Below are positions 470 through 51,100 of a stretch of 64,000 nucleotides of DNA, one piece after another (the stretch's first letter is position 1; each line of letters starts with the position of its first letter). Both the position numbers and the translations under genes were made by a program. The notes beneath the pieces are model-generated. The model had not been told where the DNA came from, searched no databases, and worked only from the letters and a program-made list of their open reading frames with translations. Origin of the DNA: a virus. Lineage: Duplodnaviria; Heunggongvirae; Uroviricota; Caudoviricetes. The stretch lies in the IMG/VR virus record IMGVR_UViG_3300045988_163275, positions 32,001 through 96,000 of that record. One strand, 5' to 3'.

Positions 470-660
470 CCAGCGCTACCCCAGCGCCGCTACGCAATTT
501 CTGGCGCGATTCCGGGTTTCTCCCGCTCAGTTTTCTACATAAAGGCGACCCCCGCCGTTTCCCGAAAAAATCTTGGCCGTTTCCCGTCGGCTCATGAATG
601 CGTTCCTCGCCGTTTCTGAAAATTTCCCTGCGGCAGCTGGTGGCTATAGAGAAAGGGCCG
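470..660. repeat. cluster of CCGTTTCC(C/T)G / TTTCCCTG short repeats (copy 1)
   Basis: at least five CCGTTTC-type repeats within ~150 bp; near-identical arrangement recurs at ~4400-4700. Confidence 0.5.
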
Positions 661-679
661 TTTCTGGCCCTCTTCTCAG

Positions 680-1162
680 TTACACGCCATCAAGGATGTG
701 GATGCGGTTGCTTGCGTATACATTCAGCATAAAGTTAGCGCAAAACAGTTTCCATGTGTCAACGCCAGCGGCATACGTAATGTTTTTGCATTTTATTGCA
801 TTGTTGGCGATCCACATCCCCTGCGATACTGCTTCATCGTCGGAAAATTTGAACGACGATTGAGTTTTAATCCAGACAGAAATCTGCGTAGCGAACTCAA
901 TCAGCTTGGACTGGCAGAATCGCCCGGAGCGCACCGGAAAGACGAACGTTCCGAATCCAGAATTTACCACATATGCTTTCTCAAATACCCGCGAGTAACG
1001 ACGATTGCCAATGATGTCGCGTGCAATAATGCATTTTTCTTGTGCTGACAGTTCTACCGTCTCATTGTCGCGCCATGCACCAAGTACTCGTTTTTCAATG
1101 TCAGAGAACGTTACAGCGATATTGCCATGTGCGGGTGCGTTTACAGTAGCGATAAAATTCAT
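680..1162 (-). CDS. hypothetical protein (160 aa)
   Basis: ATG start at 1160-1162; preceded by leader motif A; no recognisable domain. Confidence 0.5.
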   Translation of the reverse strand: MNFIATVNAPAHGNIAVTFSDIEKRVLGAWRDNETVELSAQEKCIIARDIIGNRRYSRVFEKAYVVNSGFGTFVFPVRSGRFCQSKLIEFATQISVWIKTQSSFKFSDDEAVSQGMWIANNAIKCKNITYAAGVDTWKLFCANFMLNVYASNRIHILDGV

Positions 1163-1182
1163 GATTAATTACTTATCGTAAA

Positions 1183-1216
1183 TAACAAATTGTTTTCTTG
1201 TTGGTGTTAATTATCG
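1183..1216 (-). promoter_or_regulatory. leader motif A copy (AACAAATTGTTTTCTTGTTGGTGTTAATTATC)
   Basis: conserved ~35-bp element 20 nt upstream of start of 680..1162. Confidence 0.5.
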
Positions 1217-1338
1217 TTGTACGAATAAGGCGTCAAAGTGGAAAGTTGCGGTAGCCGGACGGGAACAGGTGGGTTTGTCGGTTGCCTGGAGGTAAGAGGT
1301 TGGTGTTTTTAGCCTGCGGGAAACAGGATGGTCATTTA

Positions 1339-1360
1339 AGGCCACCAGCATTGGTGGCCT
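1339..1360 (-). terminator. stem-loop built from Chi-like octamers (GGCCACCAGC-A-TTGGTGGCC)
   Basis: 8-bp stem immediately 3' of stop of 1367..1654; contains CCACCAGC (Chi complement). Confidence 0.4.
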
Positions 1361-1366
1361 TACTCT

Positions 1367-1654
1367 TTAGTGGAGCAGACCGATGTCGATGGTATCCCCT
1401 GAATCATCCACACGGATCATCAGCATGGCGAAGGCGTTTAGTGGATAGCTTGCGTGCCATTCAGGGAAGCGGTCATCTCGCATGAAGTCGGCAATGTCGT
1501 AAACGCAGCCCTCAAAGTGGAAGAATCGCGTGCTTACCTGCTCGTCATATTCCACATGATCCATTTCTTGCTGTTCTGTTTCCGGCAAGTCCAGCCATGA
1601 TTCAAGGAATACATTTTGTGCTTTAGGGGTAATGGTGAAATCAGTCATGAGCAT
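1367..1654 (-). CDS. hypothetical small acidic protein (95 aa)
   Basis: track ORF 1367..1780 begins with TTG and covers motif A; first ATG with GAGGAT SD at 1652-1654 (MLMTDFTITPK...). Confidence 0.45.
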   Translation of the reverse strand: MLMTDFTITPKAQNVFLESWLDLPETEQQEMDHVEYDEQVSTRFFHFEGCVYDIADFMRDDRFPEWHASYPLNAFAMLMIRVDDSGDTIDIGLLH

Positions 1655-1667
1655 ATCCTCACTGCGT

Positions 1668-1700
1668 AAACATATTGTTTTCTTGTTGGTGTAATTATCG
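1668..1700 (-). promoter_or_regulatory. leader motif A copy
   Basis: CATATTGTTTTCTTGTTGGTGTAATTATC 14 nt upstream of ATG at 1654. Confidence 0.5.
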
Positions 1701-1810
1701 CAGTGTAGATAAGGCATAAAAGACGTTAATACAGGCTGAATACACAAGAAAGGTTCTGGAAGTTGATAGCCAGGTTTCAAACTAACCTTCGGTTATTAAA
1801 AGTCATTTAA

Positions 1811-1830
1811 GACCACCAATGCTGGTGGCC
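1811..1830 (-). terminator. stem-loop containing Chi octamer GCTGGTGG
   Basis: GACCACCA-ATGC-TGGTGGCC hairpin 3' of small ORF 1838..1981. Confidence 0.35.
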
Positions 1831-1837
1831 TTAATAA

Positions 1838-1981
1838 TTATCGCCCGATTACGCTAAGGATCTTTTCCTCAACTGATTTGTTGTTGCGACTAAACTGCCT
1901 TGCGTATCTTATGACAGAAGAGGCGTTTCGCTTTCTGACCATCTCGGCTCTCTCCTTCAGGCGTTTCTTGAAATCGCCCAT
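1838..1981 (-). CDS. hypothetical small basic protein (47 aa)
   Basis: ATG at 1979-1981, K/R-rich; not in ORF track (<60 aa); hand-translated. Confidence 0.25.
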   Translation of the reverse strand: MGDFKKRLKERAEMVRKRNASSVIRYARQFSRNNKSVEEKILSVIGR

Positions 1982-1983
1982 AT

Positions 1984-2358
1984 TTACCACCAGGCGCAGA
2001 AGGTCAGTCTATTATTGTGAAAGTCGTGGTTCTTAATCAGATCTTCCACAATCTCTTTCAACTCCCCCACATCATGCCAGTAACCTTCATCGTACTCCTG
2101 ACTGCCGAAGAAAAAACCTTCCTGGGTAGGCAAGTACTCTTCGCAATTACTTTCGTTTATGTGCATCAAATGAGCCTTCAGAAAACAAATGTCATTCATC
2201 GTTAATTCTAAAAGCTCACAATTTTCGACTTCACCTACGTTGCGCTCCATCCACCCAACGAGCGCATTGAACTTACGGAAGTAAGCAACCTGCTTTCTGG
2301 ATGCCTCGTTATTCAGATCGTTTTTTGGCTGCGTCTCGATGTAGATATCAAGCCCCAT
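1984..2358 (-). CDS. hypothetical protein
   Basis: track ORF 1984..2400 starts with GTG; internal ATG at 2356-2358 has AAGGAA SD (MGLDIYIETQ...); alternative ATG at 2392-2394. Confidence 0.45.
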   Translation of the reverse strand: MGLDIYIETQPKNDLNNEASRKQVAYFRKFNALVGWMERNVGEVENCELLELTMNDICFLKAHLMHINESNCEEYLPTQEGFFFGSQEYDEGYWHDVGELKEIVEDLIKNHDFHNNRLTFCAWW

Positions 2359-2416
2359 GATGGTTTCCTTATTAAGTTGCTTCAGTGAAATCATTTTCAC
2401 AAATCAGATAAGGCAG

Positions 2417-2440
2417 AAAACAAATTGTTATCGGGCATAA
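2417..2440 (-). promoter_or_regulatory. leader motif A copy (degenerate)
   Basis: GAAAACAAATTGTTATCGGGCATAAG upstream of 1984..2400. Confidence 0.35.
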
Positions 2441-2475
2441 GAAAATGGCGCGGGGTACGCGCCATTCAAAGAGGA

Positions 2476-2871
2476 TTAAGCGAATACGCTTTCAGGGACA
2501 ATGGTGTCGATCTTTTCGCCGGAGATTATTCGCAGACCGTGTTGTCCCATCCAGGTACTATTGGTATTTAAACTCGATGTATAAACCGCATCGACCTTTT
2601 TCATCAAATTTTCAAACAACGTCTGATCCGCGCCACGGAAATGAGTTTCCAGTTTTATCAGTAAAGGGTCAGAAGCATTACTGATGCTTTGGTAACGCAC
2701 CGAATATTTCCCCTTTGTCGCCTCGCCGGTGCGAGTTAAGGTACTGGTGTGAACTTCTTCGCCGGAGGCATTATCGCGTAGCACAATTGTAATTTTTGCA
2801 ACTTTGTCTCCATTTTCCGTCTCTGATGCATAATACATATCCAGGGTCAGATTTTCGCGTTTAACGGTCAT
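2476..2871 (-). CDS. hypothetical protein (131 aa)
   Basis: ATG at 2869-2871 with AAGGAGAG SD 5 nt upstream. Confidence 0.55.
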   Translation of the reverse strand: MTVKRENLTLDMYYASETENGDKVAKITIVLRDNASGEEVHTSTLTRTGEATKGKYSVRYQSISNASDPLLIKLETHFRGADQTLFENLMKKVDAVYTSSLNTNSTWMGQHGLRIISGEKIDTIVPESVFA

Positions 2872-2908
2872 TTCACTCTCCTTAGTGTTTAATTTTTAAT
2901 TTTATTAT

Positions 2909-2927
2909 CATAAGTAAGTACTTACAA
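2909..2927. promoter_or_regulatory. palindromic operator-like motif B copy (TAAGTAAGTACTTAC)
   Basis: palindrome core TAAGTACTTA, 38 nt upstream of ATG 2871. Confidence 0.5.
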
Positions 2928-2935
2928 TACAAAAA

Positions 2936-2962
2936 AGCCCCGAAGGATTGGCGGGGCTGTCG
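2936..2962 (-). terminator. rho-independent terminator
   Basis: minus strand GCCCCG-loop-CGGGGC followed by TTTTTT, just 3' of stop of 2993..3304. Confidence 0.6.
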
Positions 2963-2992
2963 TACATTCGACTAACTACTGCTTGCACATGT

Positions 2993-3304
2993 TTAAGCTA
3001 CCGCCTGAACAGACGCTCGTTGGATCTCTTGTTGGGCGACACGGTTGGCTTCCATCAGCGCCAGTTCAAGCTGGTCCTCTGGCCACATTTTCTGGACCGA
3101 CATCCACCCTCTTCCACGCTGGCGACGAACTACCATCACATAGCGCGTAAAATTGCCCGCGTCGAAGGTAATGGCTTTTTCACGAAACAGACGGATAGAA
3201 GTCCCATTCGCTACGATATCCAGCAATGTGAGATGCCCCATTAAGGTTGGTTTTTCTTTTCTATCCTGGCCTTCAGCAAGACCCAGCACCAATGAAGTAT
3301 TCAT
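2993..3304 (-). CDS. hypothetical protein (103 aa)
   Basis: ATG at 3302-3304 with GGAG SD; track ORF extends to 3334 over motif A. Confidence 0.5.
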   Translation of the reverse strand: MNTSLVLGLAEGQDRKEKPTLMGHLTLLDIVANGTSIRLFREKAITFDAGNFTRYVMVVRRQRGRGWMSVQKMWPEDQLELALMEANRVAQQEIQRASVQAVA

Positions 3305-3314
3305 CACCACTCCG

Positions 3315-3350
3315 TAAACAAATTGTTTTCTCAATGGCGTAAATAATACC
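3315..3350 (-). promoter_or_regulatory. leader motif A copy
   Basis: AAACAAATTGTTTTCTCAATGGCGTAAATAATAC 11 nt upstream of ATG 3304. Confidence 0.5.
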
Positions 3351-3464
3351 AGTGTAAAAACGGCTACAAAGCATATTGCTCAGGCACATGAATTATCTAA
3401 AGGTGGTTCTGCCCTGCGGCTACAGAGAAGTTAAGCCAGCAGGCGGTGCTGGCTTTGGTTGGGC

Positions 3465-3794
3465 TTACGCGAATAACTCAAGGAATTCCTGCACGTCCCA
3501 ATGCTGGACAAGGTGAAGATAGAGCTTAGAAATCACGTCATTCTCGCTATCGCATGTGAAGTAGTACTTCTGGCTGCGGTTGTATGTGTCCACACAAAAT
3601 TCGCTCATATCCATAAAGTCAGCATCTTCACCCATGTCGCAAATAATCAAAGCAGGAGCATCATCACGAGTCATCAGCTCAAGCACCCAGCGCGAATTGA
3701 TCAGCGTGGAAGACCAACCTTCTAACTCATAAAACTGGTCAAACTCTTTTTGAGTCATTTTCTTGATTTGGTTGATGTCGATATTTGCAAACAT
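3465..3794 (-). CDS. hypothetical protein (109 aa)
   Basis: ATG at 3792-3794 with AAGGAT SD; track ORF extends to 3860. Confidence 0.5.
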   Translation of the reverse strand: MFANIDINQIKKMTQKEFDQFYELEGWSSTLINSRWVLELMTRDDAPALIICDMGEDADFMDMSEFCVDTYNRSQKYYFTCDSENDVISKLYLHLVQHWDVQEFLELFA

Positions 3795-3806
3795 AAAGCA
3801 ATCCTT

Positions 3807-3840
3807 AAACATGTTGTTTTCTGAATTGCGTAAACAATAC
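3807..3840 (-). promoter_or_regulatory. leader motif A copy
   Basis: AAACATGTTGTTTTCTGAATTGCGTAAACAATAC upstream of 3794. Confidence 0.5.
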
Positions 3841-3933
3841 CAGTAAGAAAACGGCCACAAAGTATATCGTTACGGTGCTGCGCTGCCCCGGAGGTTAATA
3901 GCGACAAAAGCCACCGTGCTGGTGGTCTCACTC

Positions 3934-4152
3934 TTAATCTTCGTCGTCCGGGAACTCGCTGTGTACCGCGTCCACCAGCTCCCGCTTTTCATCTTCACTA
4001 AGCAGGTGCCAGATATCCTTCCCTTTGGGCGATTCCCCTTCTGCCGGGACGAACGACCACAACTTGCGGTACAACTCCGGCCCCACTGCATCCAGACACT
4101 CAGCCAGGGAATCCACGCCCCACACCTCAACCGTCACAGGCATCTTAATCAT
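3934..4152 (-). CDS. hypothetical acidic protein (72 aa)
   Basis: ATG at 4150-4152 with GAGGAT SD; preferred over overlapping low-complexity frame 3870..4130. Confidence 0.5.
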   Translation of the reverse strand: MIKMPVTVEVWGVDSLAECLDAVGPELYRKLWSFVPAEGESPKGKDIWHLLSEDEKRELVDAVHSEFPDDED

Positions 4153-4183
4153 CTCTTCATCCTCACTTCGTTTCTATAACGTC

Positions 4184-4218
4184 TAAATATGTTGTTTACT
4201 TGTTGGTGTTATTATCGC
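4184..4218 (-). promoter_or_regulatory. leader motif A copy
   Basis: AAATATGTTGTTTACTTGTTGGTGTTATTATCGC upstream of 4152. Confidence 0.5.
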
Positions 4219-4239
4219 AATAAGACAAAGGCGAAAAAG

Positions 4240-4700
4240 GATTTTATGTCGTGAAAGCCAGGCTGGGCAGTGAATATCCGGGAACGACACGGGAACCAGT
4301 ATTTACGATATTCTGCTCTACGCGCGCCGCAGGGCTGGTGGGCAGAATTTTCTTCTCCCCGAAAACCTACTGAAATCGCTTGAGACCCGAGGATGGTCTG
4401 GCAGACTGGAGTTCAGCAGCTGCACGAGAGGGAACGACACTCCCCCGCGATTTTCAGGCGAGTGAAGAGTAAGGCGCACTCCCGAAGATTTCCCGCACCG
4501 CTCCCGCAGTCGTCTCTCACTCTGTACCGGGATGTACCCGTTTCCCGACCGGCAGCCAGCCTTTTCCCGGTTCGTATAGCGAGATTCCCACCGTTTCCCT
4601 GAAAAACCTCCAGCCTTTTCCCTGCGGCGACGTTCCCGTTCCTGAAAAGGGACATGGCCTTTTCCCTGGATGGCCCGAAGGCTGACCGAAGGGGTGGATA
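4240..4700. repeat. cluster of GGGAAC / CCGTTTCCC / CCTTTTCCC short repeats (copy 2)
   Basis: CCGTTTCCCTGAAAAA ... CCTTTTCCCTGCGGC arrangement mirrors 540-640; ORF-free. Confidence 0.5.
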
Positions 4701-5560
4701 GGGACGTTACGGGGGATGAAAGCTATGGCTTGAATTTATACGAAGAAAGTGGCGATACCCCTCCTTCCCTTCCCACTTATACCTCCCACGAATTTTCTCT
4801 CTTATGTGGGCATAAATCTTCTCTCTGATAACGCTCAATACGGCGACTATTCCTGTGGGTGAAATGGGTGGTTTGTTCTTTCTACCGGCATATGTGGTTT
4901 CGTTCTTCTTGAGGTGGTTCTTCTCTGTGTTTTCGTCAGGGTTGTTCTCGTTGTTTTGGTGATTGTTCTTCTCTGTGTATGGAGTAATGGCAGGTGGGCG
5001 ATTCCTTTCGTTATTGTATTTGAGTTGTTTGTCTTGAGAGCGTGAAAGGCTTTTGTGGTTATTTGTGTATTGAGTAATGGCGTTTCCCCGCGAATGTTCT
5101 GTTTCGTGTCTTTGGGGATTGAGGGAGTCCTTGCGGTAACAGGCTTCGTTAGAGTTTCAGTGGTTCTGGTGTTTATTCGCTGTTTGGGGAATGGCGTGTA
5201 GTGGGTATCGCATGTATGAATGTTTCGAGTTGCCTGTGAAAGTTAGGTTGGTTGTCCGGTAGCCTGGGAAGAAGAGGTGGGTCTTTTCAGTAGCCTGCCA
5301 TAAAGAGGTTGGTTGTTTTTGGGAATGTGGGTAATGGCGTCTCTGGGTTTCCTGTGGGTGTGGTTAGCTTGTTTTCTTGTGTCTGAAAACAACTTGTTTA
5401 GATGTCCAATATAACGCAACGGGAGCGCTTCTGAGCGTGTCTGTTTTTGGGTGGTATCACGAGTCGTTTTTGACGTTTTGGTCGCAGGGAGATGGATTCT
5501 GGTACGCTGGATTTGGGTATAAGAGATGGCGTGCGAAAACATCAACTTTTTAGACCAAAT
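4700..5560. repeat. ORF-free region with extreme G+T strand bias and internal direct repeats
   Basis: plus strand almost entirely G/T; repeated (G)AGTAATGGCG at ~4983, 5073, 5186, 5329 and GTTCTTCTCTGTGT twice; track ORFs here are compositional artefacts. Confidence 0.5.
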
Positions 5561-5595: not shown

Positions 5596-5625
5596 TTATT
5601 TGTTTTCTTATGGGTGTAATTAGCT
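5596..5625 (-). promoter_or_regulatory. leader motif A-like copy facing the G+T-rich region
   Basis: TTATTTGTTTTCTTATGGGTGTAATTAGC; would direct minus-strand transcription into 4700-5560. Confidence 0.3.
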
Positions 5626-5741
5626 TAAATGCCTTGTCACGCCTGGGATTGAGTGGGGTAGGGTGGTGGGGAAAGTGGCGATCAACGGACTCTTATAGAA
5701 ATCCTCAATTTGTGACCGCCAATATCAACGAGTTGCAGCCG

Positions 5742-6387: not shown

Positions 6388-6708
6388 TCACCATTCCCAT
6401 GCAGGTAGCCCATCCACCAGCTCGGCGTCGCAATCGAAGTGAACCACGTCAAAGCCGTCATCCAGTATGGTCTGTATGTTGGAGATCGCCTCTTGGGAAA
6501 TGCCGTACTCACGCAGTTCTTCCTTCCAGTCATTCCCTCGCATTCCAGCACGAACAATCCAGCCGTACTGTGTACCGTGTACCCAATTCAACCCGCGATC
6601 AGTAAGTGGGTCGAAGCAGGCAATGGGTAGCCGTTCTGAATCCGCTGCCGTGACGTGGGCGGTGCTGATCACCGCCGTCTTATACGATTCGGTGATTTTC
6701 AGCATCAT
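6388..6708 (-). CDS. hypothetical protein (106 aa)
   Basis: ATG at 6706-6708 with AAAGGAGAAGG SD; overlaps stop of upstream gene. Confidence 0.55.
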   Translation of the reverse strand: MMLKITESYKTAVISTAHVTAADSERLPIACFDPLTDRGLNWVHGTQYGWIVRAGMRGNDWKEELREYGISQEAISNIQTILDDGFDVVHFDCDAELVDGLPAWEW

Positions 6709-6941: not shown

Positions 6942-6953
6942 GATTAACTCCTT

Positions 6954-6986
6954 AAACAATTTGTTTTCTTATTGGTATTATTATCT
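6954..6986 (-). promoter_or_regulatory. leader motif A copy
   Basis: AACAATTTGTTTTCTTATTGGTATTATTATC upstream of 6941. Confidence 0.5.
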
Positions 6987-7026
6987 CAAATAACGAAAGG
7001 CAGAAAACAAGATGTTTAAGGGATGA

Positions 7027-7480: not shown

Positions 7481-7684
7481 ATGAAGACCTATGATCGCAA
7501 CCGTAACACTATCACTACCGGCAGCCGAGTGATGGTGGCAACGAATGGTGCAACGGGAGTCATCAAGGAAATCTGCGGAGAAGGCAAATCAGAAGAACAA
7601 TTACGCCGCTCTGACTGCGTGTCTATCGAAGGTGTGGAAGATCTGTTCTGCCCAATGGATTTAGTTCGCCTGGGATTCCAATAA
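7481..7684 (+). CDS. hypothetical protein (67 aa), plus strand
   Basis: ATG preceded by AAAGGAGGAAACG SD; isolated plus-strand gene. Confidence 0.5.
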   Translation: MKTYDRNRNTITTGSRVMVATNGATGVIKEICGEGKSEEQLRRSDCVSIEGVEDLFCPMDLVRLGFQ

Positions 7685-32289: not shown

Positions 32290-32305
32290 GTGTTTTCTCC
32301 TTGTT

Positions 32306-32325: not shown

Positions 32326-32777
32326 AATGGGCGCTATAAGGCGCACAATCATTGTGTTCAGGCTGGTGGAAAGAACTTCTCCAGCGTGTGGTTGATAGCC
32401 TTATCAATGTGCATCAGGTGGCCAAATTCAGTGTGCCACTTCACTCGAACCCCAAGACCGGCAATGGAATCGCTTTGTAGAGCTAGAGTTAGTGCCGCAT
32501 CCTCGTATTGAGCACAGCGAAGCGATTGAGCTAGACTATGGCATGACGGGGGGCGCTCTAAAGGTTGAGATTAGAGCGGCCTCGGCAGGCTACTTACTCA
32601 GACAATGGAATGTGGATTGTTCTACCAACGCCACACTCCAAGATGGTGGAGCTCAATTGTACTTAAAGAACAGAGCAACACTTTATGGAGTTAAAAACAT
32701 CATGCTAGCTCCAGGGATTGAAAAAGAACTTGGTAACTAATGCACAAAAACGAACTTGGCGCAGAGAATAAATTTTG

Positions 32778-36110: not shown

Positions 36111-36113
36111 TCT

Positions 36114-36800: not shown

Positions 36801-36873
36801 AGAATAAACAATTTCAATCAGTTAAATAGTGCCACATGCTTTTTATGCAAGGCATCACGCAAAAGGTGAACAC

Positions 36874-38796: not shown

Positions 38797-38891
38797 GGGG
38801 GGAGCATGACAAATTTTACCGGATTAAAATTTGCACACAGCCTTGTCGCAGACAAGGTGTGCCCAAAGGGTTGCGTACAGGGAGGTGCGCA

Positions 38892-41800: not shown

Positions 41801-41969
41801 AGAGACTAAAGGAACGATGTCTTCGCTTGAATTGCGTGGCATAGAAGATCGCAAGATTGAATGTGCTAGGAAATTCTTTGAAAAAATTAATGCAGAGATA
41901 ACGAGTGAAAACGTCAAATATGATGTTGTAACGAGTTACTCGAAATTAATGGAAGTCATAAGCGGTTAG
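38892..41969 (+). CDS. res: Type III restriction enzyme Res subunit (helicase + PD-(D/E)xK nuclease)
   Basis: [23 protein letters not shown]-terminus, Walker [20 protein letters not shown]; C-terminal YNPDWAISF ... [10 protein letters not shown] nuclease motif; strong GGGAGGTG SD. Confidence 0.85.
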
Positions 41970-41990
41970 TTGTTTTCGTTTTTATATCGG

Positions 41991-42024
41991 GCTGTCAGTT
42001 CATCTGGCTGACAGCTCACTTTTA
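41991..42024 (+). terminator. rho-independent terminator ending the island operon
   Basis: GCTGTCAG-TTCATCTG-GCTGACAGC then TCACTTTT. Confidence 0.55.
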
Positions 42025-42211
42025 GTTACATAAAAATAATTGAAAAATTGAGTCAGCAGATTGAGTCTAAATGTCGCTCACTCATGCGGTTATATTTTAA
42101 GTATGGTTGTTGACATGACGGAGAAATAGCATGAATCCTGAAAAGTGAATCGCCACTGCCATCAGATAGAGTTTGATCATGTGTTTTCCTATGTGGCTAT
42201 TGTGTGTAGAT

Positions 42212-42230
42212 GATAAGTAAGTGATTATAT
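42212..42230. promoter_or_regulatory. palindromic motif B copy (degenerate)
   Basis: TGATAAGTAAGTGATTATA downstream of recA stop. Confidence 0.35.
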
Positions 42231-42270
42231 ATTTTCAAGGTATAAAGACGTCCATTCGGACGCCTGAAAA

Positions 42271-44610
42271 TTAATCTTCTAATTCATCTGTCGGTGATGT
42301 CTTCTCGCGCCTGTCATCTATTGCCTGTAACGCAGCAATGATTTCAGCTAATGGCTTCTCCCGGTACATCTCGACGATCTGTGATTTGGTGTATTTCTTC
42401 TCGCCAATTTCCACACGCCCGCTGGCGCTCTTGGGCAGGTATCCTTCCTCCAGCATGTATTCAACCAGAGACTCGACGACGTCCAGCCCGCGAGTCGGGT
42501 CGAAGTAGAATTTCCATGAGCATTTGCCAAACGGAGGCGCGACTTTGTTTTTAATGCACTCGGCGCCAACGTCCTGTCCGATCTTCTCTTTGCCATCCTT
42601 CATGACGGATGCACCCAGACGGATGCGCACCGACGCGTAGAACTTCGGAGAGTCGCCACCCGGAGACGTAGTCGGATCGCCAAACATCACACCAATTTTG
42701 GTACGCACCTGGTTCAAGAAGATGATGCACGCGTTGTACTTACGCGCCCAAAGCGCCAGAGTAGGGAAGTTCGCACTTGTCGCGCGCGCCAGCGCCGTGT
42801 TGTCGTTCATGTTCAGCTGATCTTTGTCCTTCGCAGTGCCTTCTGCCATCTTGTCGAACTTCTCAGCCTTCGAGTTCGGAACCATCGACGCCAGAGAGTC
42901 GGCTACGATGCAGATAGGGGCTGTTTCCGGAATAAGCTCTTCGTCGCGCACCAGCTTGAGGATTGTGCCGATCAGCTCTACGGAGTCTTCGAAGGTATCC
43001 GGCTGTTTGTAGACCCACTGACCGTCGTCTTCGTCGGCGTTCAGTCCGTTCGCTACCGCCAGACCAACGTCGAAACTGTTTTCGTGGTCAAGGAATACGG
43101 CCAGACCATCCTGTTTTTGTGCTGACACCATCGCAGCTGTCGCGAGGAATGTGTTGTGGCTGATAATCCCGTTAGACCAGAAAGAGTGTGTTTCCGGCAT
43201 CGCTACGTCGAACGTTGGTGCTTCACCTTCCTCAATAGCCACGACTTCGTCGTAGAACAAGTTAGAGTCAATTACCGCTGCCAGTTGTGCAAACAGATGC
43301 TCGTTAAAACGATTCTTTCTGCTAATGAAGGAGACATAGATTTCTCGCAGTTTGTCTATTCCGACACGATCGCCGCGGCCAATAACGTGATCTACCAGAA
43401 CGTAGTCTTTACGAGAGGTCTTGGTGAGTGACTCGTAGAGTGATTTCACTAAGCCGCTGATGTGCGGAACGTAGCCTAAATAAGTGCGGTCAAAACTAAT
43501 GTCCCGTTTGGTTGCCACTGCTAAACGAGCCGGAGACTCGAACCCAATCGTTGACAGGAAAAGGTCGTAGTTAGAGCCACTGAATGACAGCCGGTAATAT
43601 ATGTTTTTATAACCTGCGACGTGTTTTTCAGAGATAGTTGACGTAATCCCCAGATTCAGGAGCATGAGGCGAATTTGCTGTAGCAGCAGCCCACTCGCGC
43701 TCACAACCTCAATGCAGCGACCATCATTGATGTGGCATTCCAGCTCAAAGTAGCCGCGAAGGAATGCAATTTGAGCCTCGCTATTGGCGCGACGCACACT
43801 CAACGGAACCTGCTTGCCAGCAGCTTTCTCATACTCCAGACCATATTCTTTAAAAAGCAGCGAACGCACCTCTTTGCTAAACAGCACATGGTCTTCCGAG
43901 CCGTTATGTTTTCTCGTAACTGGCATCTTGTCTGATACCAGCGAAATGAGGCGGTAGTACTCATCCTTGATGAATGGATCTGTGTTAGAAAAATGCACAG
44001 AATTTTCAGAGGCCACGTATCCGTCAGCAATTAAATAGCCCATCAGTTTTGCGATATTGGCATCCAAGTGCTGATCGCCGAATTGATGTGTGCCAACCAT
44101 TGAAGGAATCGTGTCGCCTACACTGATTTTTTCAGCATACCGCCAGACGATATTGCCTAAGTCGTCAACCACACGAATTGGGTGACGGAACGTAGCCTCG
44201 ATGTAACCCCCTGATGCCAGCTTAATGCGCTTGAATTTGCGACGGTTGTTCCATGTCAGGTGTGAGGTCTTCTCTATCACGCCATTTTCATTGATGAGTC
44301 CAACGTTATGCTCTACATCGCGAGTAGTGCATGTTGCTTTGTGCCCCTCAATCTCAAACAGTTCTTTCACTGTTACCATTCCACGCTCCGTCAGCAGCAT
44401 GGTGTCTGCGGTAACACATTTCCCCGCGCTTGGTGGCCCGAAGACTTCAACGATACGCCCACACGGAAAACCACCGTCGTAACGTCCGGAAATGGCTTTG
44501 TTCAGTGGAGGGAAACCGGAGTCAATCCAGTGGGAGACCTTCTGAATCTCGTCATTGCTGCCGATTTTCTTTTTCAGCGCCAGTGCCAGTGCGGATTTGC
44601 CTTTTGCCAT
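42271..44610 (-). CDS. recA: RecA recombinase interrupted by a 422-aa intein
   Basis: exteins total ~357 aa with GPPSAGK P-loop and IFLNQVRTKIGVMFGDPTTSPGGDSPKFYASVRIRLG core; ATG with AAGGAG SD. Confidence 0.9.
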   Translation of the reverse strand: MAKGKSALALALKKKIGSNDEIQKVSHWIDSGFPPLNKAISGRYDGGFPCGRIVEVFGPPSAGKCVTADTMLLTERGMVTVKELFEIEGHKATCTTRDVEHNVGLINENGVIEKTSHLTWNNRRKFKRIKLASGGYIEATFRHPIRVVDDLGNIVWRYAEKISVGDTIPSMVGTHQFGDQHLDANIAKLMGYLIADGYVASENSVHFSNTDPFIKDEYYRLISLVSDKMPVTRKHNGSEDHVLFSKEVRSLLFKEYGLEYEKAAGKQVPLSVRRANSEAQIAFLRGYFELECHINDGRCIEVVSASGLLLQQIRLMLLNLGITSTISEKHVAGYKNIYYRLSFSGSNYDLFLSTIGFESPARLAVATKRDISFDRTYLGYVPHISGLVKSLYESLTKTSRKDYVLVDHVIGRGDRVGIDKLREIYVSFISRKNRFNEHLFAQLAAVIDSNLFYDEVVAIEEGEAPTFDVAMPETHSFWSNGIISHNTFLATAAMVSAQKQDGLAVFLDHENSFDVGLAVANGLNADEDDGQWVYKQPDTFEDSVELIGTILKLVRDEELIPETAPICIVADSLASMVPNSKAEKFDKMAEGTAKDKDQLNMNDNTALARATSANFPTLALWARKYNACIIFLNQVRTKIGVMFGDPTTSPGGDSPKFYASVRIRLGASVMKDGKEKIGQDVGAECIKNKVAPPFGKCSWKFYFDPTRGLDVVESLVEYMLEEGYLPKSASGRVEIGEKKYTKSQIVEMYREKPLAEIIAALQAIDDRREKTSPTDELED
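43153..44418 (-). mobile_element. intein with LAGLIDADG homing-endonuclease domain inserted in the RecA P-loop
   Basis: starts CVTADTMLL after GPPSAGK, TFRHP block, LMGYLIADGYV and FLRGYFELECH dodecapeptides, ends IISHN followed by T; boundary codons checked by hand. Confidence 0.8.
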
Positions 44611-44612
44611 GA

Positions 44613-44879
44613 TTAGGCTCCTTTTGATTCGTTGATTCGCTTCGAAGCAGCGGCTTCGTCAAACTTGATTGCGTCGTGGTTCAGGTGTTTGGCGACGCGA
44701 GCGATGATCTTCACGACCTGCTCACTGACCAGCGCGAACTCACGCTCAGTAGCAGAAATGCCAGCAGCGCCCAGAATGTTCGGCAGCGCTACCACAGCGT
44801 GCTCGCCGTGGCAGAAAACAATCTCCTTTGCCAGCATGGTTGGCGTAGTTGCCCCGCCATTAATGATGGATTTCAGCAT
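44613..44879 (-). CDS. hypothetical protein (88 aa)
   Basis: ATG overlaps stop of flap endonuclease; ends 3 nt before recA ATG. Confidence 0.45.
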   Translation of the reverse strand: MLKSIINGGATTPTMLAKEIVFCHGEHAVVALPNILGAAGISATEREFALVSEQVVKIIARVAKHLNHDAIKFDEAAASKRINESKGA

Positions 44880-45823
44880 CAGCAATACCTCTCAAACGGC
44901 AGAACAAACACTTCCAGATCTTCCAGAAACGAACGGAAATTCAGCTCGTAACACATCTGTTCAAAGGCGCTCATATCGCGTGCGCCTTTAATCGACTCGA
45001 TTTCGCTGGGTGGGAATTTTGTGTCGATAAGGTTCATCAGCATCATGTTGCGCTTAAAGGCTTCGAGCATCCGGCAGCCCGTCTTCTCGTTGAAGGCGTT
45101 CTTTGCCAGCTTGTTGAATGCCGTCTTATAGCGACCTTTGTTGATGACAATGGAACCGTCGTTAATGCCGCGTACCATTGCGGCCACGCTTCCCCATTCA
45201 TGAAGCAGCTCTTTCGCGCCACCATCACCAATGCCACCTACGCCTTTGATGTTGTCCGAGTTATCGCCCTGCAACGCTTTCGCTTCCAGAAACGCGCGTG
45301 GGGTCGGCAGACCGGTCAGCTCTGCGAACTGTTCGAAGTTCACCTGCTTGTGCTTGGCGTCTTCACGCAGGCTTATCCAGCTCACGTTCTCACGAACAAG
45401 CTGGAGCCAGTCGCCATCGCCCGTTAGCAGATAGATATGGTCAACAGTCGGCTGCGGAGCCAGACGAGAGACCAGCATTCCAGCCAGGTCATCCGCTTCT
45501 GCGTCCTTTGCAATGAGTTGGTTAACGCCCAGCGCGGTCATCATTTTCAAGATGTACGGCTTCTGGATGGCAAAGCCTTCTTTCATCTTCTTCATGTCCG
45601 GGTCGTCGTCGCGGTTCGCTTTGTACTCCGGGTAGAAGTCGCGACGTTTGTCGCTGAATCCATCCCACAAGATCATTGGCCGGGCATGGAGAATTGAGGC
45701 GTAACGACGAACGTTCTTCACGAAGCCAAAAGTCGCCTGAACTTCCATCTCGCCGTTGTGTAATTTGTCGGATTGCTGGTGGTAATAGCCCAGGCTGTTA
45801 CCGTCCACAAAGAGATAATTCAC
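44879..45823 (-). CDS. 5'-3' exonuclease / flap endonuclease (FEN)
   Basis: NYLFVDGNSLGYY, EADD, LLTGDGDWLQL, GDNSDNIKGVGGIG; probable GTG start at 45821-45823 with GGAAGGAG SD (track ORF starts 45874). Confidence 0.8.
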   Translation of the reverse strand: MNYLFVDGNSLGYYHQQSDKLHNGEMEVQATFGFVKNVRRYASILHARPMILWDGFSDKRRDFYPEYKANRDDDPDMKKMKEGFAIQKPYILKMMTALGVNQLIAKDAEADDLAGMLVSRLAPQPTVDHIYLLTGDGDWLQLVRENVSWISLREDAKHKQVNFEQFAELTGLPTPRAFLEAKALQGDNSDNIKGVGGIGDGGAKELLHEWGSVAAMVRGINDGSIVINKGRYKTAFNKLAKNAFNEKTGCRMLEAFKRNMMLMNLIDTKFPPSEIESIKGARDMSAFEQMCYELNFRSFLEDLEVFVLPFERYC

Positions 45824-45842
45824 CGGTACACTCCTTCCAAAA

Positions 45843-45866
45843 AGTAAGGCGTCCGCAGACGCCTTA
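45843..45866 (-). terminator. intercistronic hairpin between SSB and FEN genes
   Basis: AAGGCGTC-TGCG-GACGCCTT; possible attenuator. Confidence 0.35.
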
Positions 45867-45883
45867 CTGGTCACGTTATGGGA

Positions 45884-46900
45884 TTACAGAGCGTCCAGTT
45901 CAGCCAGCAGGTTATCGAGACCTTCATCAGCTGGTACAGATGCAGCGGCAGCAGATGCTGAAGCACTTGCGGCTTCGGTGGCTTCCGGAGCTTTCGCTTC
46001 TTCCGGTTTGAACTCAGCTTCAGCTGCACGCAGGATCTCTTCATCAACCAGGCTGGTGGACTCTGGCGCCGGAGTATGTGCTGTAGCGACAGCAGCTGCG
46101 CCTTCCGTATGTCCAGTGATAGAGCCAAAGCCTGGCAGTCCAGCTGCGGCTGATTTTGCAGCGGAAGAAATGGCTGGTGAGGACATAGTTGCTGCCGGAG
46201 CCGCAATACCAATCAGACGACCCATAGTGCGAGCCGTGGACAGCAAACGAGTTTCGTCAGACTGGTTCGCATATGCGATCAGATCGTGTTGGGTAGTCCA
46301 GAGCTTCTCAGGAATGTCGCCTTTGTAGACTTTACGTTTCGGGGATACGTCGTACTTGGTGTCACGACCGGAACCGGTGCGTTTAATCAGGAACGCATAG
46401 CCTTCTTCTTTGCTCAGTGGGTTGCCAATATCGTCCGCAATATCTTCGGACATCACTTTGCAGATATCGTCGAAGACCGTAGACGGCAGCTCAATTAGCT
46501 GGCATTTCTCTGCGTCCGCAAAGTCTTCACGCGCAGACAGAACACCGTTGACCAGATAACGCGGCGTAGCACGCATACTATTAATGCGCTCTTCCATCGC
46601 TTTGTTGCCCTTAAAGCGAGCGCGACCTTCCATAACCATCTCACACAGCTGGCAAGCGTGGCCGTGGGTGTGTTGTTCGCAGATATAGGCGGTGGTTACA
46701 TCTTTGCCTTCCTCATTCTGATGCTTAACGTAGTGCATACCGAAAGTCTGGAAGAACACGCCATTCGGATCGTCCTTGTTCGGAAAAATGCGCAGATAGT
46801 TATTGCCATCTTTCAGACGGGTCAAATCAATGTTATTGCCACGTTTGGAAGCAATATCGCCACGGGTCTTGTTAAGCAGATCAAGTAATGACTTAGACAT
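45884..46900 (-). CDS. putative ssDNA-binding protein (gp32-like) with acidic C-terminal tail
   Basis: GNNYLRIFPNKDDPNGVFFQTFGMHYVKH followed by H/C cluster (CEQHTHGHACQLC); A/E-rich tail; AAGGAG SD. Confidence 0.55.
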   Translation of the reverse strand: MSKSLLDLLNKTRGDIASKRGNNIDLTRLKDGNNYLRIFPNKDDPNGVFFQTFGMHYVKHQNEEGKDVTTAYICEQHTHGHACQLCEMVMEGRARFKGNKAMEERINSMRATPRYLVNGVLSAREDFADAEKCQLIELPSTVFDDICKVMSEDIADDIGNPLSKEEGYAFLIKRTGSGRDTKYDVSPKRKVYKGDIPEKLWTTQHDLIAYANQSDETRLLSTARTMGRLIGIAAPAATMSSPAISSAAKSAAAGLPGFGSITGHTEGAAAVATAHTPAPESTSLVDEEILRAAEAEFKPEEAKAPEATEAASASASAAAASVPADEGLDNLLAELDAL

Positions 46901-46986
46901 GTATTTCTCCTTGTTGTGATTGTGGCCATTGGCGCTATGCGCATTGGGCGTTCGTTTGTTCGTGGCTCTTTCGAGCGAGAAGAATG

Positions 46987-47010
46987 ATAGATCAGTACTT
47001 ACTTACTATC
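46987..47010. promoter_or_regulatory. palindromic motif B copy
   Basis: GATAGATCAGTACTTACTTACTATC upstream of SSB gene. Confidence 0.5.
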
Positions 47011-47019
47011 TAGCATAAA

Positions 47020-47493
47020 TTAACGGGGTAAATGGAATCGTTCGGCCCCCAGACGCTCTATCTCTACGATAGCCATCTTCGACGCCTGGACAATCATATC
47101 GCGGCGGTGGGAGAAGGCGGCTACAGCGTGCTTGTACAGGTCTGCAATGTGTCGAGCATCGTCGAGTTTCTGGCGCTTTGCGAGGTATTGCGGGTTGGTT
47201 CTAACCTTCGCTTCCAGTACTGATTCATTAAACTTAATTCCATTCATACTCAAGCTCTTACGCTCGTTGTCATAGATTTTTGCCTCGATCGCGTCGAGAG
47301 AGAGTTTTGCATCTGCAACCTCACGTTCTGCCCGTGCCAGCTTAGAGCCATACTCCATCAACAGACGCGGTTGCTGACGCCAGACTTCCTCCAGATTGTC
47401 GCGGTCGAACTCCAGATCGGACATGATTTTTTCGTAGATATCGGTGCTCATAAAGTTATCTATATACTTATTTTCGTATATCAATTTTATCAT
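47020..47493 (-). CDS. hypothetical coiled-coil protein (157 aa)
   Basis: ATG at 47491-47493, no SD. Confidence 0.35.
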   Translation of the reverse strand: MIKLIYENKYIDNFMSTDIYEKIMSDLEFDRDNLEEVWRQQPRLLMEYGSKLARAEREVADAKLSLDAIEAKIYDNERKSLSMNGIKFNESVLEAKVRTNPQYLAKRQKLDDARHIADLYKHAVAAFSHRRDMIVQASKMAIVEIERLGAERFHLPR

Positions 47494-47560
47494 GTTGGAA
47501 TCAGGCGGTGGAGCTGGCTTGCTGAAGAACTTGAGGGCTGACGTAGATAAGCTGATGTAA

Positions 47561-48121
47561 ATGGGGATAATTCTGATAACCTGTAGTCAGTACTGCGTAG
47601 TCGCAGATGCTCTGTATAGCCACGGTTGCGATGATGCGCTCATTTGCTACTACGGAAACTCAGTGTATGTAGAATTTGACCGAGAAGCTAAATCTTTAGA
47701 TGAAGCAATCGAATCGGCAATCCTTGATATTGAAACAGCAGGCATTGGCGCAGTGGTGGAATCGGTAGATTCAGCACTGGTAGGCTTGAGCGATATTGCT
47801 CAACTCTCTGGCTTAACGCGCCAGGCTATTACTCTGCTTAAAGACGGATTACGTGGCAAAGGTGATTTTCCTTGCCCTGTTCAGCGTATCAGCGGTCAGT
47901 CTCCACTCTGGGACTGGGCGGAAGTCGCTAAATGGTTGAATGACTGCGGTCGTCTTGACAGCAAAGACGAAAAAGCACGGGAAGAACTGGTGCGTAACGC
48001 GCGCACATTGAGTACGTGGAATCTTGCCCTGCGTATAAGATCGTTGGGCGACATTCATGAGGTGGAGAGAGTTACTCGCTCACTCAGTCACTCGCAAGAC
48101 TGCGAAAAAATTTGCGCATAA
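47561..48121 (+). CDS. putative transcriptional regulator with AlpA-like HTH C-terminal domain
   Basis: LSDIAQLSGLTRQAITLLKDGLRGKGDFPCPVQRISGQSPLWDWAEVAKWL; terminator follows; start uncertain. Confidence 0.45.
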   Translation: MGIILITCSQYCVVADALYSHGCDDALICYYGNSVYVEFDREAKSLDEAIESAILDIETAGIGAVVESVDSALVGLSDIAQLSGLTRQAITLLKDGLRGKGDFPCPVQRISGQSPLWDWAEVAKWLNDCGRLDSKDEKAREELVRNARTLSTWNLALRIRSLGDIHEVERVTRSLSHSQDCEKICA

Positions 48122-48150
48122 AACCCGCCAAATGGCGGGTTTTTCTTTAT
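48121..48150. terminator. bidirectional rho-independent terminator
   Basis: AACCCGCC-AAAT-GGCGGGTT then TTTTCTTTATT, between convergent genes. Confidence 0.6.
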
Positions 48151-51100
48151 TACTTATTTATCGTCTCCGCAATATCAGTCAGAATGGCCTCCAGTCGCTC
48201 TCCTTCTTCCGGTCGGAAGTAAAGGATATTCGGGTTAAATCCGTAGAAAACGGTCGCATCCAGCTCCGGCAGATACTCTTTGCGTCCAACCAGGTCGGAT
48301 GGTTTGCTCTTGTTGTTGAAGAGCGACGTCGCCCGGCTGCCACACGTCAGTACATAGGTCGGACGCACCAGATTGATCTCTTCACGCATAAAGTCGGTGA
48401 ACTGGCCGATCTCGTCTTTGGTGTAGTCCTTCTCTTTGTCCTTCACCTTTTTGCACACGCCGGTGACGTAGAGATCGCCCATACGCAGATCGCCGGCAGT
48501 AAGCAACTTCGCCTTAAAGTCGTCGTAGCCGTTCTCCATGAAGTAGCCGGTACGCCCATCATTGCCGTTCGCGTTGTCCAGAATGACCATGATTTTCGGC
48601 TTAATGCCAATGCTTGGGCGGATCAGGTCGTCTCCCAGACCCATTTCGGCCGCCATGCGAGTCATCAGTGCATTCACCTCGGCAGAGCGCTTAGGGTTCA
48701 TCTCGAACGGTCGAGAGGCTTTTACAGCGTCGATCACCAGATTGCCCATCAACTCTGCCTGGTCGCGCAGTCGTTCCGGATCTGTCGCTGGCAGACTGCC
48801 AGACTCAATCGATGCGAACGCACCGACTCTTTGCAGTGATTCGCGTACCCGGCTGTTACATGCACGCTTCTCGACCGCTTCCTCAAATTGCTCAAGTGAC
48901 TCGAATTTGCCGCCAACTTTCTCACGCGCTCTCATGATGGCCTGGCAACCATTCTCAGAGCAGCCTTTCACAGCAGAGAATGGTGCATACAGAACCTGAC
49001 TGCCGTCTTCCAGCGTGCGGATCTCAATTCGGTTAGATGACACGTTAACGTCTGGTGGCAATACGCGAATGCCATAGGTCAGCGCATCCTTAACCAGCCC
49101 CTGGTGCTTATCCTCGCCCAGAATGGTGAGCGCAGCAGCGAAGAACTCAGCAGGGTAATGTGTCTTTAACCACATAGACTGATAGCTGATTAAAGAATAA
49201 GCAACACTGTGTGATTTGTTGAAGGCATATCCACCGAACTTCTCAAAGGCGTCCCATATTTCTTGGGCTTTTTCCTTACTGAGACCTTCTTGTTCAGAGA
49301 CGATCTCCACGTAGTCTATGCCGTCACTAATAGCCTCGCTGTAGCTTCTACGCTTACCGTCTGAGCAATCCAATTTTGCGTGTTTGTGAACCTCTACAGT
49401 ACCTCCATTTTTGAGTGACAGTGTCACCCAGCCTGCTTGTGCTCGTTCTACAAAATCGCTGCCGATCGCTTTCATCTTATCCATGTTCTTTTTACCGATA
49501 GCGGAACGCAGAGCGTCTGCTTCGGCCATAGAGAACCCGGCAAGTACTCGGGAACTTTGCATGATTTGTTCCTGATAGAGCAAAACACCATTAGTCTCCC
49601 GGGTGACTTCCTCAAGACGCGGATGAATTGAATGTGGAGCCATGAAGCCTTTGGCCACGGAGACATAGTCGTCCAACATGCCGGATTGGATCGGGCCAGG
49701 TCGGAAGAGTGCGGTCGTGGCGACAACGGTTTTGAAGCTCATTGGCTCAATGCCACCGCCCAGATCTTTAAGCAGCTTGCGCATGGGGCCGGACTCCAGC
49801 TGGAATACGCCTTGCGTGTACCCTGCAGCGAACCCATCCAGAACCTTACGATCGTCCAGTGGAATAGCATCGAGATTGATGTCTTCCCCGGTACTCTCTT
49901 TGATGTAGCGTTTCGCGCTATCCAGCAGATCGAGCGTTGCCAGACCGAGAACGTCCAGCTTAATCAGCCCCATCGCCTCGCAGTAACGTTTATCGAACGC
50001 AATACAGCGAGCGTTGCCACGCAGCTCGACGGGCGTGCGCTCTACCAGTGGAACGCCAGCGACGATCATCCCCGCAGCGTGACGACCAAAACCACGCATC
50101 AGGCTTTGCAGCTTACACGCCGCTTTGAACGCTTCCGGGTTTTTCGTGGCGTATTTGTCCAGGCTGGCCAGTTGCTCGCGCAGCTCTTCCAGAGACAGGC
50201 TATCGTCTTCCAGATTCTTGAACTCTTTGGATACCGCCATATCCGCAGCGTCGACACCGTAAATACGCGCAGTGTCTCGCAGCGCAGAAGCGGCGCCCAG
50301 ATAGGTGAAGTTTGGAATACCGGCAACGTAATCTTCGCCATAGCGTTCATTCAGATACTCGATCACCTCATGACGACGTGCCTGGCTGAAGTCCAGATCC
50401 GCATCCGGTAAGTCAAGACGTTCAGGGTTGATGAAACGCTCAAACAGAAGACCGTGACGGATAGGATCGACGTTGGTTATGCCTATGCACCACGCTACCA
50501 GAGAACCCGCTGACGAACCACGCCCTGGCCCAACCGGTATTCCTGTTTCACGGCTGTGATTCATCAGATCGCGTACCATCAGGAAGTAGCCACAGAAGCC
50601 CAGACGGGTCAGTGTGTCCATTTCGTACTTCAGTCGCTCAACATACACTCGGTGCTCAGAAGCCGGTGGTGTGTAGCCAAACTCTTTAGTAGTTAGACGC
50701 TTGCGTAGCCCCGCGACAGCCAGCTTCAGCAGCGTTGCAGGCTCGTCGTCTGCCATCTTGGGCAGTGCTGGTGGCAGTTCATGCCAGCGCCATGTGCAGG
50801 CTTCAATAATGGTGTCCTGCGTTGTTGAGGCCATTGCAGCTGTTACCGGTACGCCCATGCGAACGGAGAAGGCCTTCAGCGCTTCAAGGAGATGGCGACG
50901 ACCATTAACAGCGTTATCTCGCTGGTGGGGGATGCGCAGACGATGCGGCTGGTCGATTTTGATGTTGTTCGTAACCATGTGCGCAATGTCTTTAATGTCA
51001 GCGTCGTCGATCGCTTCGTAATAAGCGGGATAGAACGCCACTGGCTCTATTTTCAGTGCGCTCGCCACTTTCATCGCCCGGACGTTAATCTGGTCGTAGA

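Follow-up and report, generated by a model that had tools for sequence, protein, structure and literature searches.

Why does a temperate phage with recombination genes of its own abound in the octamer at which the RecBCD enzyme of its host is turned from degradation to repair, and does the arrangement of these octamers, the Chi sites, record how the phage replicates and breaks? The question is raised by a 64-kb stretch of DNA, here called the window, which covers positions 32,001 to 96,000 of the IMG/VR virus record IMGVR_UViG_3300045988_163275. Its best matches are E. coli plasmids of 100-130 kb (96-100% identity) that encode repA, dnaE, ligase and nucleotide-metabolism genes together with full sets of head, tail and terminase genes, and Salmonella phage SSU5 matches it at 93% over the common genes. 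On these matches, the window belongs to an SSU5/pHCM2-type phage-plasmid of E. coli, of which it represents ~60%, the circle of the relatives measuring ~110 kb; the terminase genes are located beyond its limits. Elements of this type carry resistance and defence genes and are often found in E. coli, Shigella sonnei, Salmonella Typhi and Klebsiella (bioRxiv 10.1101/2025.09.12.675607). PLSDB lists ~830 related plasmids. The gene map of the window was taken over from two annotated relatives.

The reading that we favour, with a probability of roughly 0.7, is that the Chi sites are selected and, as in P1, divert host RecBCD from destroying the element to repairing it together with RecA, and that their orientation is chromosome-like, with a flip at the plasmid origin oriR. 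Chi richness as such is not surprising in a temperate enterobacterial phage-plasmid, being expected for this lifestyle and known from P1. The conserved orientation domains described below are the only new result, and a mildly new one; no link between SSU5-type elements and Chi was found in the literature searched.

Chi number, composition and codon usage

An exact search of both strands finds 20 copies of the Chi octamer 5'-GCTGGTGG-3' in the window, 12 on the plus strand (636, 1821, 3918, 4334, 14699, 19999, 31340, 32362, 45775, 46052, 50767 and 50921) and eight on the minus strand (467, 1342, 3972, 6414, 15968, 21672, 63384 and 63569). The original prediction, which was made by eye, had put forward a strand-biased excess of eight plus sites and one minus site. 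All nine coordinates are exact matches on the strands assigned to them, but as a full count the list overlooks four plus sites (19999, 45775, 46052 and 50921) and seven minus sites. The excess itself is real, since 100 dinucleotide shuffles yield 1.36 copies on average (standard deviation 1.18, maximum 5). Markov models predict 1.5 copies at order 1, 4.7 at order 3, 7.5 at order 5 and 15 at order 6, the last of which includes both Chi heptamers and is thus not an independent null. The 24 neighbours that differ from Chi at one position are all rare, each being present in only 0-9 copies. Chi is the second commonest octamer of the window, after a word from a repeated promoter block, and the commonest octamer of the complete relatives pEC21Z137-115K and SSU5, with 31 copies each. 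With one site per 3.2 kb, the window is no less dense in Chi than E. coli K-12 (Poisson P=0.07 for at least 20 sites), for which one per 4.6 kb is reported (PMC12315714).

It could be argued that this excess is a by-product of host-like codon or oligonucleotide usage, or of shared ancestry, without any selection on Chi. The octamer includes CTG, a common leucine codon, the Markov expectations rise at the higher orders, many sites are common to the relatives by descent, and two sites in dnaE have been lost through synonymous changes in some lineages. Shuffling experiments nevertheless rule out codon usage as the cause. Within genes, 13 sites are found (6 sense, 7 antisense), against 3.85 expected when synonymous codons are shuffled gene by gene, where 0 of 1000 shuffles reach 13, and against 2.27 when codon order is shuffled. 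For the seven antisense sites alone, the codon-preserving shuffles give 1.5. The strongest enrichment of any class concerns the 12.95 kb of non-coding DNA, which holds seven sites compared with 0.26 expected.

The rarity of the one-mismatch neighbours also speaks against a by-product, as does the recently acquired cargo, which has no Chi at all. One such block is a defence island on the plus strand (32778-41966; 0 Chi at 32.8-42.0 kb), which encodes a helicase-related protein, a DUF4391 protein, a DNA methyltransferase and a type III restriction endonuclease. Its guanine-plus-cytosine (GC) content is about 41%, compared with about 49% in the remaining DNA, its strand is opposite to that of the backbone, and in some relatives a type I system replaces it. 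The other block (56368-61503; 0 Chi at 56.4-61.4 kb) comprises a tyrosine recombinase and about eight small genes between a CobT-like gene and a tRNA-Asn gene (61429-61503, minus strand); it is shorter in pEC21Z137-115K and absent from SSU5, and looks like variable cargo. Given the enrichment beyond the shuffles, the Chi-free cargo and the top rank of the octamer in the relatives, we conclude that the Chi sites are selected, and an excess that arose without selection appears very improbable.

The octamer is the one recognised as Chi by E. coli and other enterics (PMC12315714), and host RecBCD should recognise it because the closest relatives of the window are E. coli plasmids. The sites thus combine the exact sequence of enterobacterial Chi, an over-representation beyond composition and codon usage, and a RecBCD-bearing host. 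The most distant relatives of the element, L077 (IMGVR_UViG_2639762749_000008), L071 and L076, in which the CobT-like protein is 39-52% identical and the GC content 41-45%, contain 0-3 Chi in 22 kb, the count being zero in L077 (GC 42%). This scarcity would fit hosts with another Chi sequence.

Orientation domains and the plasmid origin

What, then, of the strand bias? The true split of 12:8 is compatible with an even distribution (binomial p=0.50), and the complete relatives are without net bias as well (16:15 and 12:19), so that the strand-biased excess initially put forward is largely an artefact of incomplete counting. The bias that seemed to be present consists of a domain right of repA (six plus and no minus sites at 31340-50921) together with the sites overlooked elsewhere. 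It had also been proposed that the plus-biased set attenuates RecBCD entering from the high-coordinate side. A plus-strand 5'-GCTGGTGG-3' does act on RecBCD that arrives from high coordinates, according to established Chi polarity (PMC12315714), and the 20-kb plus-only stretch is conserved in the family. However, the sites clustered at the left end are 4:3 and the next sites at higher coordinates, 63384 and 63569, face the other way. Since there is no net strand bias, the window is not organised against one-sided RecBCD entry. The exact count refutes this proposal for the window as a whole, and what remains of it is a description of the domain right of repA; as an explanation of the Chi sites in general it is unlikely.

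The pattern that replaces it emerges at the level of the family. With six anchor proteins spread round the genome, 419 IMG/VR loci were retrieved, each of 22 kb at most, and the 1658 Chi occurrences in these loci were clustered by flanking sequence into 198 groups of homologous sites. When the groups present in at least three loci are counted in the orientation of the window, the first 25.5 kb from repA (domain A) contain nine plus and no minus groups. Domain B (25.5-75 kb from repA) has 10 plus and 30 minus, domain C (75-90 kb) 19 plus and 22 minus, and domain D (90-115 kb) five plus and 14 minus. Domain A differs from B and from D in Fisher tests (4.5e-5 and 5.8e-4, respectively). Chi is therefore antisense to genes only in the ~25 kb right of repA and sense almost everywhere else in the family. 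The complete relatives agree: rightwards from repA, five or six plus sites come first without exception, followed by five to nine that are almost all minus.

The boundary between domains A and B is best documented by the 70 loci anchored on the CobT-like gene. All ligase-side Chi in these loci are on the sense strand, while the dnaE-side sites are antisense save three singletons, once the rearranged loci L035 and L059 are dropped, and this pattern holds with anchor identities from 100% down to 39%. The most distant relatives have different, non-homologous Chi sites with the same orientation, a further argument against a by-product of ancestry. The direction of genes, or of their transcription, is ruled out as the cause of the domains and of the flips between them, because the genes concerned are all on one strand. 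Indeed, nearly all genes of the window are on the minus strand, the exceptions being repA, the defence island and three small genes (7481-7681, 55981-56367, and a pseudogene of a helix-turn-helix regulator at about 47561-48121, all plus). In L035 (IMGVR_UViG_2609459856_000007), the CobT-like gene is truncated, and the DNA to its right is non-syntenic and has 10 Chi within 10 kb, eight of them on one strand; it probably results from a rearrangement or from joining to other host-like DNA.

Within the window, the plus-only domain opens with the site at 31340-31347, antisense in a small minus-strand gene (31254-31463) and conserved in 29 loci, followed by one at 32362-32369 in non-coding DNA with pseudogene remnants. 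The next two lie antisense in the minus-strand genes for a 5'-3' exonuclease (site 45775-45782, gene 44882-45823, 38 loci) and a gp32-like single-stranded DNA-binding protein (SSB; site 46052-46059, gene 45887-46900, 26 loci). The last two are antisense in dnaE (48153-51656, minus strand). The first of these (50767-50774, 45 loci) reads CCA CCA GCA (Pro-Pro-Ala) on the sense strand. The second (50921-50928, 56 loci) reads C CAC CAG C (His-Gln) there, and no further plus site follows ahead of the second flip. Most lineages keep both dnaE sites at about 82% nucleotide identity and some have lost them synonymously, the sequences compared not being independent. Beyond this domain the orientation in the window is 0:2, both sites lying in sense in the minus-strand DNA ligase gene (63384-63391, 43 loci; 63569-63576, 25 loci).

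Left of repA, the site at 14699-14706 (plus) is antisense in an RNase H-like gene (about 14181-14774, minus strand) and that at 15968-15975 (minus) is sense in an N6-adenine methyltransferase gene (15804-16394, minus strand). Then follow a plus site at 19999-20006, antisense in gene 19717-20109 (minus strand) and conserved in 41 related loci, and a minus site at 21672-21679, sense in gene 21415-22290 (minus strand), which is the last minus site ahead of the plasmid origin.

The minus-to-plus flip falls between 21.7 kb in the window, or 26.8 kb in the family, and 31.3 kb, and thus brackets the probable plasmid origin. The gene repA for the plasmid replication initiator (29626-30681, plus strand) encodes a product 100% identical to annotated RepA. 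Upstream of it, at 29081-29586, are six copies of the 17-nt iteron TATCCACTGTAGTGAGT, and a second iteron field downstream (30684-31246) has six direct and at least six inverted copies in a layout like that of P1 incA, which makes a total of 12 direct and at least six inverted copies around repA (28947-31246). DnaA-box-like (TTATTCACA / TTATACACA) and GATC-rich sequence is found just upstream of the iterons, at 28969-29420, and the replicon contains an internal duplication of about 380 bp (29062-29162 versus 29445-29545, 71%). The surroundings of repA match the oriR-repA-incA arrangement of P1, and the iteron region 29081-29586 is accordingly the candidate origin.

The flip at the plasmid origin is the only one that coincides with a mapped feature. 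The second flip, from plus to minus, is confined by related loci to the stretch from 50.9 to about 57 kb, near the CobT-like gene and tRNA-Asn. In the window it corresponds to the Chi-free interval 50929-63383, which holds an AAA ATPase gene, the CobT-like gene, the integrase with its variable cargo and tRNA-Asn; when 55380-56400 was read through, only another copy of the common promoter module was seen. At this flip the GC skew at four-fold sites of minus-strand genes switches sign, from +0.04 to +0.10 before it to -0.06 to -0.10 after it (pEC21Z137-115K, 8-48 kb; SSU5 rotated to repA, 1-32 kb). The difference amounts to about 2.6-3.3 sigma by our own estimate from the four-fold site counts, which is modest, and we could not reconcile the skew at the second flip with the flip at oriR.

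The Chi-dense zone of small genes

The original prediction had also noted a cluster of Chi in the first 4.4 kb. Seven sites do lie at 467-4341 (scan-statistic P 0.012-0.018), but four are plus and three minus. This cluster is part of a family-wide Chi-dense zone of small genes, rich in promoters and terminators, in which both orientations are frequent. Window positions 1-7.7 kb belong to it, the genes here being small and on the minus strand, and the zone corresponds to domain C. It gathers 63 of the 198 family site groups in 15 kb (30 plus, 33 minus), and in the complete relatives its start lies immediately upstream of the terminase small-subunit gene.

Are the octamers in this zone kept as Chi or as parts of other elements, such as terminator stems and protein-binding repeat arrays? 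Several of its small genes have a terminator-like hairpin on their 3' side, and several Chi sites had been placed in the stems of such post-gene hairpins. This is correct for three of the 20 window sites. Two of the hairpins are strong. The site at 1342-1349 (minus) forms part of the stem and loop of the hairpin 1337-1362 (-19.3 kcal/mol, z -4.2), which follows a minus-strand open reading frame (ORF) at 1367-1780 that has no counterpart in the transferred annotation, and the site at 1821-1828 (plus) lies in the hairpin 1807-1834 (-17.4 kcal/mol, z about -4). The third hairpin, at 3911-3925, is weak; it contains the site at 3918-3925 (plus) and is followed by TTTT on the minus strand, after gene 3937-4149. 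No significant hairpin is found at 467, 636, 4334 or 32362. Across the family, the stem of the form GCCACC-loop-GCTGGTGGC contains Chi in seven of the 198 clusters, against 1.2 expected, and all seven are in the small-gene zone.

Preservation of the octamer for such functions would, however, explain only three to four of the 20 window sites, 13 of which are in genes and in many contexts. The hairpins 1337-1362 and 1807-1834 are one palindrome, with the same stem and flanks (inverted repeat I2, 96%). The 4-nt loop is inverted between them (GCAT versus ATGC), yet a full Chi is made up in both cases, only on opposite strands, which looks as though Chi had been selected inside a stem and not the other way round. 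The idea that the octamers are kept as something other than Chi is improbable as a general explanation.

The remaining sites of the zone are associated with genes or with repeats. The sites at 3972-3979 and 6414-6421 (both minus) are sense in the minus-strand genes 3937-4149 and 6391-6708, respectively. Two non-coding patches, at about 510-630 and about 4520-4680, consist of short CCGTTTCCC(G/T) / TTTTCCCTG repeats. The first patch sits between the non-coding Chi sites 467-474 (minus), on its left flank, and 636-643 (plus), and both sites face outward from it. The latter abuts the patch as TTCCCTGCGGCA directly followed by GCTGGTGG, a junction that recurs in related loci and that would fit a role of the octamer in the repeat array. 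The non-coding site 4334-4341 (plus) is found about 100-200 bp ahead of the second patch. These CCGTTTCCC patches may serve as a lytic origin, as a site of packaging or as an array that binds a protein.

Two other kinds of repeat were observed. A promoter-like block of ~55 nt, beginning TAAACAAnTTGTTTTCTTGTTGGTGTnATTATCGC and containing an AACAnnnTGTT palindrome, immediately precedes most small minus-strand genes, as well as the CobT-like gene (1167-1240, 1660-1728, 3308-3376, 3799-3867, 4184-4239, 5598-5630, 6953-7000 and 55410-55460); it may be a common operator-promoter module for one regulator. In addition, three to four head-to-tail repeats of ~30 nt (CGGTAGCCTGG...AGAGGTTGGT) occur in the small-gene zone at 1249-1338, just downstream of ORF 1367-1780, and at 5223-5319.

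Host RecBCD and the recombination genes of the element

How could the host enzyme act on such an element? Following established RecBCD biology, host RecBCD would load on a double-strand end of the element, which may stem from a broken fork in the low-copy plasmid prophage, from a concatemer or terminase-cut end in lytic growth, or from injected linear DNA. The enzyme would degrade the DNA up to a 5'-GCTGGTGG-3' that it approaches from the 3' side and would then turn to RecA loading, leading to repair from a sister copy and not to destruction. Each Chi would face a RecBCD running from a broken fork back to the plasmid origin, with the terminus strongly off-centre. By our own tally, this origin-to-terminus scheme fits 21 of 31 Chi in pEC21Z137-115K and 24 of 31 in SSU5 (about 68-77%). 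The action of these sites on RecBCD is predicted from this biology. The copy number of the relative Cyrano (LF82) is about 5.5 (PMC9928086).

Several observations weigh against repair by host RecBCD at Chi sites ordered from origin to terminus. The scheme needs a terminus only ~25 kb from the origin one way and ~85-90 kb the other. Chi density is similar in the E. coli chromosome, whose orientation also flips at the replication origin, but there the second flip is opposite the origin, whereas here it is ~22-27 kb away in a ~110 kb circle, and no dif/cer-like Xer site is present at the second flip at up to 3 mismatches. Moreover, chromosomal Chi is on the G-rich leading strand. The skew change described above is opposite in sense to this rule, Chi being on the C-rich strand at four-fold sites in two domains, the plus domain and the next ~24 kb (a placement that also disagrees with the octamer as a by-product of base usage). 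In the window itself the sites left of repA are only 2:2, and the polarity there is seen at the family level. The loci are not phylogenetically independent, a problem that the clustering of homologous sites lessens but does not remove.

Finally, the element has recombination proteins of its own. A RecA/UvsX-like recombinase (profile match PF00154, 1.3e-36) is encoded at 42274-44610 on the minus strand by a gene with a LAGLIDADG homing-endonuclease intein; its product is 779 aa long here compared with 358 aa, intein-free, in SSU5. Profile scans further identify the gp32-like SSB, the 5'-3' exonuclease and SbcCD-like proteins. In lambdoid phages, such a recombination module goes with few Chi sites (PMC12315714). 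No product named as a RecBCD inhibitor of the Gam/Abc2 type is found in the annotation of three relatives, the profile scans having covered 11 different window proteins.

A tentative alternative is that the orientation is set by the ends of the lytic cycle and not by theta replication. RecBCD would enter, as in lambda and the lambdoid phage LLS, at a terminase-cut end or on rolling-circle tails, and would meet the dense zone first. The position of this zone next to the terminase small-subunit gene is consistent with such entry, most Chi sites run in the same direction as terS, terL and the head and tail genes, which is the active orientation by analogy with lambda and LLS, and SSU5 has two correctly oriented Chi less than 1 kb from the right end of its record. 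The four-fold GC skew would, in addition, place an origin and not a terminus at the second flip, with the Chi on both sides facing outward-running RecBCD, as expected for rolling-circle tails. However, the plus-only domain right of repA is wrongly oriented for entry from the terminase side, as are about half of the dense-zone sites, the start of the SSU5 record may be arbitrary, and one flip coincides with the plasmid origin, as it does at oriR in P1. The packaging site and mode of the SSU5-type family were not found in the literature searched, including the paper on Cyrano, which gives copy number and induction data (PMC9928086). In the Cyrano virome ERR8973296, coverage does not rise above that of the plasmid background.

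The closest known counterpart of the element is P1. Both are temperate phages with low-copy plasmid prophages and oriR-repA-incA iteron replicons, and in both a RepA-iteron origin shares one replicon with phage structural genes, which in the present case are those of the complete relatives. A direct count gives 50 Chi in the 94.8 kb of P1, with 16 plus and five minus right of oriR and one plus and two minus just left of it, so that in both elements minus orientation gives way to plus at the plasmid origin; both also bear tRNA genes. Chi is the commonest octamer of P1 (PMC12315714), as it is of the complete relatives, the window itself having it at rank 2. P1 differs in being a myovirus of an unrelated lineage, the SSU5 type being a siphovirus, and in its higher Chi density, one per 1.9 kb against one per 3.2-3.7 kb here. 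The annotated genes of P1 include no RecA-type recombinase, in contrast to the RecA/UvsX-like, gp32-like and SbcCD-like set of this element, and P1 is reported to require host RecA and RecBCD (PMC12315714). For growth or maintenance of the SSU5 family, no experimental data on dependence on RecA or RecBCD were found in the literature searched.

P1 and LLS are published Chi-rich phages that benefit from RecBCD, and Chi is the commonest octamer in both (PMC12315714). LLS represents a Chi-rich lambdoid class without a Rec module (Zheng et al. 2025, PMC12315714; Bobay et al. 2013, PMC3784561). Like the present element, this class shows a Chi enrichment beyond codon usage and a local concentration of sites, and selection to exploit host RecBCD has been proposed for it. 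In LLS, however, 20 of 23 Chi share one orientation and are concentrated at the right cos end, whereas the split is 12:8 here and about 1:1 to 2:3 in whole genomes, and the zone next to the terminase genes is 30:33. The LLS class is lambdoid and lacks recombinases, while this element is a non-lambdoid plasmid prophage that encodes them. Its recombinases and the absence of one prevailing Chi orientation rule out this class as the home of the element.

Rolling-circle plasmids offer a further parallel. Dabert, Ehrlich and Gruss reportedly showed in 1992, with single engineered sites on small plasmids, that a correctly oriented Chi stops RecBCD from degrading linear tails. The same benefit may be proposed during concatemer formation, here for a natural element of ~110 kb.

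A wider and rather speculative proposal, to which we attach a low probability, is that the Chi orientation map records replication and breakage in the family. The flip at 51-57 kb, upstream of the CobT-like gene, would then be an unannotated landmark of DNA metabolism, and the dense zone a preferred entry of RecBCD, with Chi placed in terminator stems and flanking a CCGTTTCCC array, in a phage that has its own recombination set and still selects host Chi. The landmark could be a site of fork arrest or terminus 25 kb from oriR, or else a lytic origin with rolling-circle tails both ways; the skew of opposite sign would favour the lytic origin.

If the persistence or spread of SSU5-type elements depends on host RecBCD acting at Chi, they would have this host dependency in common with P1. 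It may affect how these elements survive DNA breaks; uptake of CRISPR spacers, too, has been reported to stop at Chi. A phage that has its own RecA/gp32/SbcCD-type set and nevertheless selects host Chi would, if this is true, break the lambdoid rule by which a Rec module means few Chi. The orientation map, for its part, predicts the positions of the plasmid origin and of a second landmark in a family in which replication and packaging have received hardly any study.

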